Virus record (IMG/VR): IMGVR_UViG_2703718872_000004
Direction: 5' to 3' (one strand)
Source: a virus
Taxonomy: Duplodnaviria; Heunggongvirae; Uroviricota; Caudoviricetes
Length of the DNA: 9,076 nt
The notes beneath the pieces are model-generated. The model was not told where the DNA came from. It did no database searches and saw only the letters and a program-made list of their open reading frames with translations. Both the position numbers and the translations under genes were made by a program. Below, piece after piece: positions 8,153-9,076 of the stretch. How positions within the stretch are numbered: position 1 is the first letter of the stretch; every line of letters starts with the position of its first letter.

Positions 8153-8170
8153 AATTTCTTTCCGTTATTG

Positions 8171-8199
8171 TTGACAATAAGAACTGTTTTCATTTAAAA
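8171..8199 (+). promoter_or_regulatory. Promoter-like element on the plus strand: consensus -35 TTGACA (8171-8176) and a weak A/T-rich -10 candidate 16-18 bp downstream
   Basis: Perfect TTGACA hexamer. The possible -10 hexamers (TTTAAA / TTAAAA / TAAAAA) are all poor matches to TATAAT. Confidence 0.3.
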
Positions 8200-8251
8200 A
8201 AACAGAGTACGAAAGTATCGTTCCTTTATTTTTTCTCCATAGGTATTACCA

Positions 8252-8287
8252 CCGCCAGTCCATTCCGGTAACTGGCGGCTTTTTTTA
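8252..8287 (+). terminator. Plus-oriented intrinsic-terminator-like hairpin and T-tract, abutting the stop codon of the minus-strand moron gene
   Basis: CCGCCAGT (8252-8259) pairs perfectly with ACTGGCGG (8271-8278), 11-nt loop, then CTTTTTTTAT. On the minus strand the same hairpin is followed by GGUAAUACC, with no U-tract. Confidence 0.5.
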
Positions 8288-9076
8288 TCATGCAGCGGCG
8301 TCCGCGTTATTCACTTCCACCGCAATGCTGTCTATCAGTACCGGGTAAGTCGCACTTTTGGTAATGTCTGTCACATGCAACTTATCCGCCGAAAATGCAC
8401 TGACCGGTGACTGCGTCAGCGTGAACGGTGTGCCATCCTGACCATCAATAACCGGCGTCACCTGAAGGCTGTTATTCCCGGCAAAGCGGAAAGCCAGCGT
8501 ATGCCATTCGTTATCAAATGCGCCAAAGCTTCCCAGTTTCAGGTTGTTTGTCGCCACTTTCGCATTGTGGTACATCACATTCAGGTCTTTTGCATCCGTC
8601 TGGATGTAGAACGCTGCCAGCAGGTTATTCCCCCCATCGCCGGTCAGGACAACGCCCTGTGGCAGTGACGATACCGGCCAGTAAAACGCCATAACATACT
8701 GGTTCGCAGCCAGCGCTCCCGAAGCCTTAAAGCGGCAGCGAATCTGCCCCCCTTTCTGTAACAGAGCCGCACCGTTGCCTGCAGCGTACTCCAGCACCCA
8801 GCTGCTTTTACCGGCTTCCTTGGTCACCTTCACAGCCTTACCTCCGGTTCCCTCCGCATCGCTGACCACTTCTGCCCTGCCGCCACTGGCTGACCATCCC
8901 TGTACTTTCAGGCTTCCCTCTGACTCGCTGGCAAGGTAAGAGAGCAGTGTTGTGACGCCTGTGACTTCTGCACCGGAAGGCGATGACGGACGCACCTCTG
9001 ATACTGTCGATGATGCCCCCGCGTTTAGCGCCACTCTTCCCGCATGGCGCAGAATCGCCGTTGCCAGACGGTCGGA
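8288..9076 (-). CDS. C-terminal ~260 codons of a larger moron protein (5' end beyond the right edge); beta-rich, possible lectin/carbohydrate-binding-like domain
   Basis: Minus frame is open from the window edge to the TGA at 8288-8290; the track's GTG start at 9034 is not the true start because the frame stays open upstream. Ala/Gly/Ser/Thr/Val/Asn-rich with FGAFDNEWHTLAFRF-type strands. A relationship to the C-terminal domain of Stx-phage NanS-p esterases is a guess. Confidence 0.7.
   Translation of the reverse strand, partial: SDRLATAILRHAGRVALNAGASSTVSEVRPSSPSGAEVTGVTTLLSYLASESEGSLKVQGWSASGGRAEVVSDAEGTGGKAVKVTKEAGKSSWVLEYAAGNGAALLQKGGQIRCRFKASGALAANQYVMAFYWPVSSLPQGVVLTGDGGNNLLAAFYIQTDAKDLNVMYHNAKVATNNLKLGSFGAFDNEWHTLAFRFAGNNSLQVTPVIDGQDGTPFTLTQSPVSAFSADKLHVTDITKSATYPVLIDSIAVEVNNADAAA

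Follow-up and report, generated by a model that had tools for sequence, protein, structure and literature searches.

A predicted promoter and terminator facing against the late operon

Why should the late operon of a phage carry, in the spacer between two of its genes, a perfect -35 hexamer and an intrinsic-terminator-like hairpin that both point against the direction of late transcription? The 9,076-nucleotide stretch of DNA that raises this question (here, the window) is part of the late region of a Stx-type lambdoid phage and has 99.9% identity to Shigella phage POCJ13. Its Pfam-supported or annotated genes (the esterase C terminus with DUF6645, DUF1378, DUF826, holin, lysozyme, Ant, Rz, KilA-N, and terminase) all lie on the minus strand and, as a sequence-only reading of the window had noticed, the promoter and terminator pair faces against every one of them. 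The answer that we consider reasonably likely is that positions 8171 to 8286 (plus strand) form a self-contained sRNA gene, a homolog of Esr41, encoding a trans-acting RNA of ~81 nt.

The pair occupies the spacer between the esterase stop codon and the DUF1378 gene. On one side is the 3′ part of a NanS-p-type SASA esterase gene with a DUF6645 C-terminal domain (8288 to 9076, minus strand; Pfam E = 1e-74), annotated in POCJ13 and other records as a SASA family carbohydrate esterase; its open reading frame spans 8288 to 9034, and its stop codon (8288 to 8290) abuts the predicted sRNA terminator. On the other is the DUF1378 gene (7973 to 8152, minus strand; Pfam E = 4e-39), which encodes 59 amino acids with a hydrophobic N-terminal segment and sits inside the late operon just upstream of the holin gene. 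Its ATG (8150 to 8152) is 18 nt from the -35 hexamer and it is transcribed divergently from the putative sRNA promoter; it is a neighbor with no demonstrated part in the sRNA system. The equivalent positions in Sakai are 2922082 to 2922168 (plus strand) of NC_002695.2, in Sp15, with the Sp5 counterpart on the minus strand downstream of ECs1207, and the element was found in 309 phage records and 760 of 5,426 complete E. coli genomes. We refer to the version in the window as allele A; Sakai carries two copies (Sp5 and Sp15) of the near-identical allele A′.

At 8171 to 8176 the plus strand reads TTGACA, the perfect -35 hexamer reported from sequence alone. TTGACA is no commoner in the window than expected by chance (4 occurrences versus 5.8 ± 2.3). 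Alleles A, A′, C, and D all have GTTGACA, an invariance that extends across alleles with unrelated downstream bodies, and allele B has TTGACT. A weak, A-rich -10 element follows at 8194 to 8200 (TTAAAA at N17 or TAAAAA at N18), aligning with TTATAT of Esr41; the family consensus is TARAAA at N17/N18. Its weakness had also been anticipated: compared with the sigma-70 standard of 16 to 18 bp between the hexamers and A2 and T6 in the -10, TAAAAA matches the -10 consensus at 4 of 6 positions, with A2 present and T6 absent, and a consensus promoter scan of the window passed over the site because the -10 lacks T at position 6. Taken together, these elements amount to a predicted promoter of the sigma-70 type, in which the -35 is perfect and the A-rich -10 is weak.

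This -10 element is the starting point for a rival explanation, namely that the window holds a descendant of an Esr41- or Pas-type sRNA gene whose promoter is too weak to matter, so that the hairpin would do no more than keep stray plus-strand transcripts from extending, in antisense orientation, into the esterase gene and stx. In favor of such a silent relic are the missing -7 T and the failed consensus scan, the degradation at two positions of the Esr41 -10 (TTATAT to TTAAAA), and an A-run in the -10 region whose length differs among haplotypes. Set against these are the invariance of the -35 across alleles and the precedent of two phage sRNAs from the same genomic slot (discussed below), EcOnc52 and PasC, whose -10 elements (TGAAAA and TCAGAA, respectively) are similarly poor and which were nevertheless detected as RNAs; a weak -10 is therefore not disqualifying.

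Reading and folding of the plus strand likewise bear out the proposed hairpin and T-tract at 8252 to 8287. The predicted intrinsic terminator (8252 to 8286) has an 8-bp stem with 6 G-C pairs, formed in the RNA by CCGCCAGU and ACUGGCGG (DNA arms CCGCCAGT at 8252 to 8259 and ACTGGCGG at 8271 to 8278), and an 11-nt loop, followed by C and U7 (T7 in the DNA, 8280 to 8286, 1 nt before the esterase stop codon). A terminator scan of the window missed this hairpin because its loop exceeds the 8-nt limit of the scan. In minus-strand orientation, GGUAAUACCUAUGG comes after this stem and there is no U-tract; it should therefore act as a canonical intrinsic terminator for plus-strand transcription only, in agreement with the earlier contention that it cannot terminate minus-strand transcription. 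A GC-rich stem followed by U6 to U9 is present on the sRNA strand in 10 of 10 alleles examined. The top of the stem differs compensatorily between alleles (U-A in allele A versus C-G, G-C in allele A′), which argues against a relic, and the stem tolerates U·G pairs (loci L009 and L241) and a G·U pair (Esr41) that are permissible only in the plus-strand RNA. Taken singly, each of these sequence features is no more than chance would provide; it is the homologs that lend support to the predicted pair.

A predicted RNA related to Esr41

The 5′ end is predicted at 8206 from the spacing in PasC and Esr41, whose 5′ ends, mapped or modeled, are exactly 29 nt downstream of TTGACA (for Esr41, the hexamer is at L085:1113-1118 and the 5′ end at 1148; PasC has the same spacing). 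Two covariance models, the Rfam Esr41 model and our own model R1, both match the region at full length (8204/8212 to 8286/8288). The -35 spacing and the two models thus support the suggestion of a plus-strand RNA of ~80 nt starting near 8205 to 8212, and the Esr41-like RNA of allele A is predicted to run from 8206 to 8286 (~81 nt). A coding RNA was ruled out, as the predicted transcript contains no ATG.

The predicted RNA (8206 to 8287) folds at -18.6 kcal/mol (z = -2.96 versus shuffles). From the 5′ end, the minimum free energy (MFE) fold contains a possible stem-loop, GUAC-GAAA-GUAU (8207 to 8218), whose register is not kept across alleles (allele D2 and Esr41 form GAUG...CAUC instead); a U-rich single-stranded stretch (8219 to 8241); and, upstream of the terminator, a mini-hairpin, GGU-AUU-ACC (8242 to 8250), that appears in both MFE and centroid folds and keeps its two outer pairs in 17 of 20 sequences, while the third is often unpaired. 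Within the single-stranded stretch, the 8-mer UUCUCCAU (8233 to 8240) is invariant in alleles A, A′, and B and in Esr41, all of which were found independently of this 8-mer. The predicted architecture is that of an Hfq-type sRNA, combining a U-rich seed left unpaired with a GC-rich stem and a U7 tail.

Conservation of this region is uneven. In the 5′ part of the sRNA, 7% of columns are variable among 34 haplotypes of alleles A and A′, compared to 21% in the adjacent esterase 3′ end, a difference that counts against a decayed gene. The predicted helices are also conserved among 20 family sequences, with 86% of cells paired versus 32 to 63% when the helices are slid along the alignment. Covariation, which had been suggested as a check on the hairpin, did not rise above shuffle controls in the same 20 sequences, and it is conservation rather than covariation that supports the predicted RNA structure.

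Esr41 (EcOnc14) is an sRNA of E. coli O157:H7 located on SpLE1 (O-islands 43 and 48). Positions 1 to 74 of its Rfam model (RF02676) match 8212 to 8286 of the window end to end with 23.8 bits (E = 0.013 in 251 nt searched and 0.087 in 1.7 kb), and the Sp15 copy in Sakai scores 30.9 bits. The window falls far short of the Rfam gathering score of 102 bits, a threshold that admits near-identical O157 copies only. In the reciprocal direction, model R1, which was built from phage alleles A, A′, and B without Esr41 and covers 8204 to 8288 in the window, finds the Esr41 gene (L085:1148-1221) with 27.7 bits and a rough E value of 0.0016 in 39 kb. Esr41 remained the top hit when 576 kb of unrelated DNA was searched (next best, 21.1 bits), even though these control loci contain the 16-nt seed-plus-flank pattern by construction. 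They came from a scan of 596 billion bases of contigs for TTTTCTCCAT-N1-2-GGTATT, which proved unspecific, returning chance matches in unrelated phyla only, and model R1 was tested on them as a negative control. Alignment with Esr41 extends to the promoter block (TTGACAA..AACT.TTTT.A.TTA.A.A) and the trailing TTTTTTTATCA. Full-length homology to Esr41 in sequence and predicted structure is therefore detectable, with E values that are rough.

Predicted seed and host targets

Esr41 has been validated as a repressor of chuA, cirA, and bfr acting at the ribosome-binding site (RBS) (PMC5286369, PMC8065619). The conserved 8-mer UUCUCCAU is complementary to the RBS motif CAUGGAGA that chuA and cirA have in common: it complements AUGGAGAA in the chuA RBS (context CCUCAUGGAGAAU) and AUGGAGA in the cirA RBS (context CCUCAUGGAGAUA). 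A short 8-mer that is conserved, unpaired in the predicted fold, and complementary to RBSs of the host is the hallmark of a seed acting in trans, and its retention in otherwise diverged alleles is another point against a decayed gene.

We predicted target pairing from simple duplex energies in short RBS windows, with shuffles and a small background of 46 genes. For allele A, cirA ranked first among the 46 translation-initiation regions (7+4+5 bp, -19.7 to -25.4 kcal/mol), and 0.7% of shuffles did as well; bfr ranked 4th and chuA 17th. The predicted allele A pairing with chuA (8+3 bp) is weaker than that of Esr41 (12 bp) or of allele B (13 contiguous bp, 12 of them in a perfect Watson-Crick run). 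Immediately 3′ of the 8-mer, allele A has AGGU where Esr41 has GGGG, and this replacement shortens its predicted pairing with chuA and cirA. Folding of whole sRNAs with 180-nt targets was dropped, as it gave meaningless long duplexes.

These observations suggest how the gene could work. In a lysogen, as long as there is no Q-dependent late transcription, the RNA polymerase of the host would transcribe the sRNA against the late operon. The ~81-nt RNA is probably Hfq dependent, and it may bind Hfq via the U7 tail and the U-rich internal stretch. The seed UUUUUUCUCCAU, with UUCUCCAU as its core, would then pair in trans with RBSs carrying CAUGGAGA and repress translation; the best predicted target is cirA, encoding the receptor for catecholate siderophores and colicins Ia/Ib, with chuA expected to pair more weakly. 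The analysis demonstrates the sequence features and their conservation, the equivalent position, the homology, and the complementarity to target sites; transcription, Hfq binding, and regulation are what we infer for the allele in the window.

Published evidence on expression and alternative roles in cis

Allele A has not been named as an sRNA in Tables S1 and S2 of Tree et al. 2014, in Sy 2020, in Waters 2017, or in the reviews and the nanS-p/small RNA literature that we consulted. None of the 63 candidate sRNAs in the published Hfq-CRAC list for Sakai falls in the spacer ECs2971-ECs2972 or ECs1207-ECs1208, and the allele A′ spacer is absent from the top Hfq-bound intergenic regions listed in the same study. 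That neither Sakai copy appears in either list is the remaining point in favor of a silent relic. To enter the sRNA list, however, a peak had to recur in at least 3 of 5 data sets, and reads from the two identical copies may have been handled differently, so that absence from one filtered CRAC list is weak evidence. Weighing the poor -10 and this absence against the conserved -35, stem, RNA body, and seed, we regard a silent relic as unlikely and continue to favor a functional trans-acting sRNA.

The sequence-only reading saw an RNA antisense to the 5′ leader of the 59-codon ORF (DUF1378), in a layout resembling type I toxin-antitoxin loci or cis-antisense control of late readthrough. An antisense RNA could pair with the Q-antiterminated late mRNA in the esterase-DUF1378 spacer, leading to RNase III cleavage or altered expression of DUF1378, DUF826, and the lysis genes; as a variant, convergent transcription itself might damp leaky late readthrough in lysogens. 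By construction, the predicted RNA is indeed a perfect complement of the late mRNA over positions -134 to -54, counted from the start codon of DUF1378; PasA, from the same slot, gave RIL-seq chimeras with esterase mRNA 3′ ends (PMC8550237, supplementary file 9); and the convergent layout resembles that of other prophage sRNAs downstream of PR′ (PMC4104026). The duplex, however, would leave the DUF1378 RBS and start codon uncovered, and a purely cis role leaves unexplained why one specific 8-mer is conserved in alleles A and B and in Esr41 amid changing flanks. Moreover, Esr41 works from SpLE1, a location without a late operon, and the same slot is filled by unrelated cassettes (allele C, PasC, and EcOnc52). 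Control in cis of the DUF1378 leader or of late readthrough, for which we found neither RBS or coding sequence overlap nor a separate leader promoter, therefore gained no support, and we consider cis-antisense action improbable as the main function; a cis effect could accompany a trans role.

For the type I toxin-antitoxin layout, DUF1378 would act as the membrane toxin, with the plus-strand RNA serving as antisense antitoxin. The protein is suitably small (59 amino acids, with the hydrophobic N-terminal segment), and directly upstream of its gene the other strand carries the short predicted RNA gene. Nevertheless, the predicted RNA (8206 to 8286) overlaps neither the DUF1378 coding sequence nor its RBS nor any demonstrated leader; at least 54 nt separate its 5′ end from the ATG, and the two units are divergent. 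A consensus scan of the minus strand found no promoter in the spacer for a separate DUF1378 mRNA, and we found no evidence of DUF1378 toxicity. The RNA family and DUF1378 are not coinherited either: Esr41 (SpLE1), PasA and PasC (with a class II holin or an IS element as neighbor), and EcOnc52 (IS629) all occur without DUF1378, while DUF1378 also adjoins the unrelated cassette of allele C. With overlap and coinheritance both lacking, we judge a toxin-antitoxin function very improbable, and the trans-acting Esr41-like sRNA remains our preferred reading.

sRNA genes at the esterase/lysis junction

Two pathogenicity-associated sRNAs of EPEC E2348/69, PasC (minus strand, 1290909 to 1290832) and PasA (743499 to 743415), are verified by Northern blotting and Hfq dependent (PMC8550237, text and Table S6). 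Both lie between a SASA esterase gene and lysis genes, antisense to both neighbors (> < >). A third, EcOnc52, was described as an Hfq-CRAC peak with a Rho-independent terminator (Tree et al. 2014) and maps, from peak coordinates published for an earlier record version, to a unit abutting the stop codon of the esterase gene ECs_1088 in Sakai Sp4; PasA occurs in the same spacer, upstream of an EcOnc52-type unit. PasC and PasA are described by Pearl Mizrahi et al. 2021 and in a 2026 preprint by Zhu, Shabalina, and Storz; EcOnc51 and EcOnc52 (Tree et al. 2014) are their reported EHEC homologs. The window unit occupies the same slot, lying between a SASA esterase and lysis genes in antisense orientation, with its terminator close to the esterase stop codon: the 3′ end of PasC is 2 nt from that codon, and the T-tract in the window is 1 nt from its own.

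The similarity goes beyond position. Like PasC and EcOnc52, the window unit has TTGACA ~30 nt before the 5′ end and an A-rich weak -10, and PasC, EcOnc52, and allele A′ have in common a terminator module, GCCAGCG...CGCUGGC-U7-AU(U/C)AUGC, that abuts the esterase stop codon. The body and proposed seed, in contrast, are unrelated to those of the Pas RNAs (the PasA seed lies in GCCAGCACCU, overlapping the terminator), and the downstream neighbor is DUF1378 rather than the class II holin or IS element found next to PasA, PasC, and EcOnc52. By the BLAST criterion of Zhu et al., the window unit has no sequence similarity to PasA or PasC, with only the terminator module and -35 alignable; model R1 gave 16.1 bits (E = 0.4) on PasC and no match on PasA. 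BLAST searches with Pas queries would miss allele A, which fits the preprint's report of few phage genomes with Pas genes.

At least six body types occupy this slot (A/A′, B, C, D, PasC/EcOnc52, and PasA), and one recombinant, L315, is made of parts of three. We suggest, quite tentatively, that the esterase/lysis junction of Stx-type and related lambdoid phages may hold an exchangeable sRNA cassette, in which the promoter and terminator would be fixed and the body swapped. A large subset of these cassettes (A, B, D, and Esr41, the last of which would have escaped to SpLE1) would have a common seed aimed at CAUGGAGA, the RBS motif found in both of the TonB-dependent receptor mRNAs chuA and cirA. 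If so, lysogenization by an Stx phage would itself retune host heme and siderophore uptake and colicin Ia/Ib sensitivity, with allele-dependent strengths (allele B, for instance, is complementary to chuA over 13 contiguous nt). Lysogenic conversion would in this case have an sRNA as its agent and would be tied to the iron-regulated biology of Shiga toxin.

Significance and comparison with known systems

Esr41 represses the ChuA (heme) and CirA (siderophore) receptors, confers resistance to colicins Ia/Ib, and affects the LEE and motility. If the window gene is expressed, the most widespread Stx phages, those of the 933W/Sakai and POCJ13 types, would carry an unannotated Esr41 paralog; O157 could then have redundancy in its Esr41-type regulation, a possible reason for the modest phenotype of an esr41 deletion, and every strain acquiring such a phage would receive this regulation with it. 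Current annotation misses these genes because the Rfam score admits only near-identical copies and Pas BLAST searches fall short. No new principle is involved, as prophage sRNAs at the esterase/lysis position are already documented.

Short, self-terminated RNAs encoded against a neighboring phage gene are familiar from lambda OOP, Sok, Sib, and IstR; unlike these, the window RNA would overlap neither neighbor's coding sequence or RBS, and its family is not linked to DUF1378. A closer layout is that of AsxR and AgvB, which are also encoded by prophage sRNA genes convergent to PR′-driven late transcription near a moron, and whose family similarly combines a conserved terminator-proximal part with variable 5′ or seed parts (Tree et al. 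2014). AsxR and AgvB are, however, shorter (51 to 60 nt), lie between the moron and the esterase rather than downstream of the esterase, and act as sponges mimicking mRNA target sites, whereas the window RNA has a predicted anti-Shine-Dalgarno seed. Membership in the AsxR/AgvB family was rejected, there being no Rfam match in the stretch scanned (7400 to 9076).

The window gene differs from Esr41 in genomic setting (the late operon of an Stx phage, between esterase and DUF1378, versus SpLE1), in the 5′ ~25 nt, and in its weaker -10 (TTAAAA versus TTATAT). Both have, or are predicted to have, a length of ~74 to 81 nt, TTGACA 29 nt before the 5′ end, and a CU-rich single-stranded seed with UUCUCCAU, followed by a mini-hairpin (GGGG-UAUU-CCC in Esr41, GGU-AUU-ACC in the window), related terminator stems (CGCCGGCA/UGCUGGCG and CCGCCAGU/ACUGGCGG, respectively), a U7 tail, and a trailing AUCA, and the two are joined by reciprocal covariance-model matches.

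Phage region and putative promoter-terminator element

The DNA in the window comes from the late region of a Stx-type lambdoid phage and is given as the strand that runs against late transcription. Its segment 7600-9076 shares 99.9% identity with Shigella phage POCJ13 and 96 to 98% with many Stx1- and Stx2-converting phages, VT1/VT2-Sakai among them. Its minus strand encodes the C-terminal part of a NanS-p-type SASA esterase (8288->9076; Pfam DUF6645), DUF1378 (7973-8152), DUF826 (7687-7932), a P21-type holin (7394-7609), and next in order lysozyme, Ant, Rz, a KilA-N protein, and terminase, while complete phages carry stxAB and Q upstream of the esterase. 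This layout makes the region at issue a 135-nt spacer from the esterase stop codon to the DUF1378 start codon. Over the Rha/KilA-N-terminase region (∼960-5300) collinearity between the window and POCJ13 (L208) is lost, and the offset shifts from 101 to ∼791, pointing to an indel or module swap of ∼700 bp relative to this nearest phage. Beyond the window's right-hand end lies the part of the phage that, in Sakai prophage Sp15, bears a strong STnc100 match (L004 5360-5569, minus strand; 176.7 bits) on the late strand between stx1B and the esterase.

The sequence-only reading had proposed that a plus-strand TTGACA and terminator at 8153-8290 delimit an antisense RNA of ∼80 nt, and all of the features it described are present in the spacer. 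The -35 hexamer TTGACA, read from the sequence, lies at 8171-8176 (+), and the plus-strand terminator stem CCGCCAGT/ACTGGCGG (8252-8259/8271-8278) is followed by C and a T7 tract (8280-8286); on the minus strand GGUAAUACC comes next, without a U-tract. The -35 and hairpin motifs are unremarkable by themselves, with 4 TTGACA in the window versus 5.8 expected. A consensus promoter scan did not call the site at 8171 because its candidate -10 elements (TTAAAA at 17 bp, TAAAAA at 18 bp) both lack T at position 6, and the loop of the hairpin at 8252-8278 is too long for the terminator scan, which did not call it. Folding of the putative RNA (8206-8287) gives -18.6 kcal/mol (z = -2.96), with a predicted order, 5′ to 3′, of stem-loop, long single-stranded U-rich stretch, 3-bp mini-hairpin, and terminator.

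Two other repeats were seen. An inverted repeat, CTGTTTT/AAAACAG (8184-8205, both strands), spans the predicted -10 and start and is predicted to form an 8-bp hairpin in minus-strand RNA; it is broken (AAACCAG) in the common Sakai-type allele and is therefore probably allele specific and incidental. On the late strand, a strong terminator-like hairpin (7648-7677, minus; 13 pairs, then UUUUAUUGUUG) lies between DUF826 and the holin start, where Q-modified polymerase would need to read through, and E2348/69 prophage PP2 has an analogous late-strand hairpin and T-run upstream of its holin (L002 ∼2840-2880).

Homology to Esr41

In a permissive Rfam scan, the Esr41 model (RF02676) matches 8212-8286 (+) end to end (positions 1 to 74) with a score of 23.8 bits (E = 0.013 over 251 nt and 0.087 over 1.7 kb). 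The gathering score, 102, is far above this value, and the element is not within the Rfam Esr41 family at the current threshold. At its core the alignment comprises UUUUCUCCAU-GG-UAUU-CC-CCGCC-G together with the 3′ arm and U-tail; the Sakai Sp15 copy of the related allele A′ scores 30.9 bits. The window aligns with Esr41 in the promoter, in the body from the seed on, in the terminator, and in the trailing TTTTTTTATCA. In the reverse direction, a covariance model trained solely on the phage alleles A, A′, and B recovers Esr41 with 27.7 bits (E = 0.0016, 39 kb searched); it reaches allele C with an E-value of ∼0.01 and PasC at E = 0.4 only. Esr41 was still the best match (runner-up, 21.1 bits) in a control search with 576 kb of unrelated DNA containing by construction a 16-nt seed-plus-flank pattern. 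From these alignments we conclude that the predicted RNA is an Esr41 homologue in the slot that holds PasA, PasC, and EcOnc52.

Alleles and conservation of the slot

We compared the upstream spacers of 80 IMG/VR loci encoding DUF1378. Allele A (the window; 4 loci) has an Esr41-like 5′ body and the stem CCGCCAGU/ACUGGCGG; the majority allele A′ (Sakai/933W type) has the same 5′ body and the stem CCGCCAGCG/CGCUGGCGG, the stem-top difference being compensatory. Allele B (12 loci) has a different 5′ body that retains UUCUCCAU and the same stem core as A, and allele C (8 loci) has an unrelated 5′ body and a related stem with a ∼40-nt loop. A, A′, and C all carry GTTGACA without variation; B has TTGACT. 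A second scan, with the seed plus the terminator half as query, returned at least 120 further loci and, among the matches listed, all but 6 were the same cassette; it also found group D (ACAUUCUCCAUUGGGAUUACCUCCGCCAGC...), which is nearer still to Esr41. A promoter block, TTGAC(A/T)...GTTTTCATTTA(A/G)AAA, is kept in A, B, and D, with a -10 consensus of TARAAA at N17/N18, and a GC-rich stem followed by U6-9 is found on the same strand in 10/10 alleles examined.

In individual loci, the DUF1378-proximal slot holds allele B (L011, L056; ∼1233-1312, minus) or allele C (L075, L027, L083; ∼1350-1470, minus), with the same -35 and terminator half; the allele C body carries a ACACCGCAGACUUCGGUGU hairpin, and neither B nor C has a significant Rfam match. 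One IMG/VR locus from the second scan, L315, is a recombinant: its 5′ part is of type A, its seed region (UUGAUUCUCCAUGAAUCUCAC) of type B, and its terminator of type A′, which suggests modular exchange inside the sRNA gene.

Among 34 haplotypes of alleles A and A′, 7% of columns vary in the sRNA 5′ part (pi = 0.023), versus 21% in the adjacent esterase 3′ end (pi = 0.048) and 9% in the DUF1378 coding sequence. The U·G pairs in two loci (L009, L241) and a G·U pair in Esr41 fit a plus-strand RNA only. In a formal covariation count of 20 family sequences, pairing is conserved (86% of cells paired, versus 32 to 63% with partners slid); covariation was not above shuffle controls, and we therefore claim no support from it.

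Predicted targets and function

Esr41 is a validated Hfq-binding sRNA whose pairing at the RBS represses chuA, cirA, and bfr (Waters et al. 2017, PMC5286369; PMC9002310; PMC8065619). The RBSs of chuA (UUUUCCUCAUGGAGAAUCGCUAUG) and cirA (UUACCUCAUGGAGAUAUGGAAUG) have in common the motif CCUCAUGGAGA, so one sRNA seed could target both. This 11-nt motif lies at ∼3770-3800 (minus) of the cirA locus (L086) and ∼16572-16600 (minus) of the chuA locus (L210); both genes encode TonB-dependent receptors. The 8-mer UUCUCCAU, which A, B, and Esr41 all retain, is complementary to AUGGAGAA. Predicted pairing with chuA and cirA is 12 bp and 13+6 bp for Esr41, and 13 contiguous bp (12 perfect Watson-Crick) and 9+4 bp for allele B. 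For the window's allele A it is 8+3 bp with chuA (-14.1 kcal/mol, rank 17/46) and 7+4+5 bp with two bulges with cirA (-19.7 to -25.4 kcal/mol, rank 1/46; 0.7% of shuffles equally good).

An anti-Shine-Dalgarno seed in a U-rich single-stranded context, ahead of a U7-tailed terminator, gives the predicted RNA the architecture of a trans-acting Hfq-dependent repressor. We infer every regulatory step for the window allele, whose seed would repress by pairing at target RBSs. The element might instead act in cis, as an antisense RNA on the late transcript it opposes; we consider this improbable, since it leaves unexplained both the conserved seed and how Esr41 can function away from a late operon. 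The type I toxin-antitoxin layout to which the element had been likened was not borne out: geometry and co-inheritance both speak against such a pair, which we regard as very improbable.

A more serious rival to a trans-acting repressor is that the element is a silent relic. Our search turned up no direct sign of transcription for either allele A or allele A′. The 63 Hfq-bound candidate sRNAs of Tree et al. have no entry in the allele A′ spacer, though Sakai has two copies, and it is also absent from their listed top intergenic sites; the window -10 is weaker than that of Esr41 (TTATAT), and the A-run within it is polymorphic. On these grounds we take a relic seriously, while considering it unlikely.

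Relation to known sRNAs

Prophage sRNAs convergent to the late operon, including in this slot, are already known (Tree 2014; Pearl Mizrahi 2021; Zhu 2026). In enteropathogenic E. coli, pasA and pasC of Stx-like prophages lie between a sialic acid esterase gene and a holin/lysozyme operon (Zhu, Shabalina and Storz 2026 preprint, doi 10.64898/2026.05.13.724894). PasA (NC_011601.1, minus, 743499->743415) and PasC (minus, 1290909->1290832) are both antisense to neighbors (Pearl Mizrahi et al. 2021, PMC8550237, Table S6), and both are Northern blot verified and Hfq stabilized; EcOnc51/EcOnc52 are the reported EHEC homologues of PasA (PMC8550237). Sakai prophage Sp4 has a unit built in the same way (TTGACA, 17 to 18 bp, A-rich -10, GCCAGCG...CGCTGGC, U7), which adjoins the stop of esterase ECs_1088 and falls on the Hfq-CRAC peak EcOnc52 (Tree et al. 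2014; peak coordinates given for an earlier record version). The slot and orientation are thus already known to hold expressed, Hfq-associated sRNAs. E2348/69 prophage PP2 carries tandem units in one spacer (L002 2460-2740, minus), PasA and then an EcOnc52-type unit adjoining the esterase stop, from which we take the 236-nt "minor" PasA form (end 743264) to be readthrough to the second terminator.

The preprint reports frequent Rfam Esr41 matches near PasD, which is located across the esterase gene from this slot; these matches probably reflect the window-type element. The preprint does not present that element as one of the sRNA genes of the PasA/PasC slot, and we found no paper naming allele A. 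The distance from TTGACA to the reported 5′ end of PasC is 29 nt, and it is again 29 nt for Sakai Esr41 (L085:1148-1221), where the hexamer occupies 1113-1118; the PasC 3′ end is 2 nt from the esterase stop, and the window has the same geometry.
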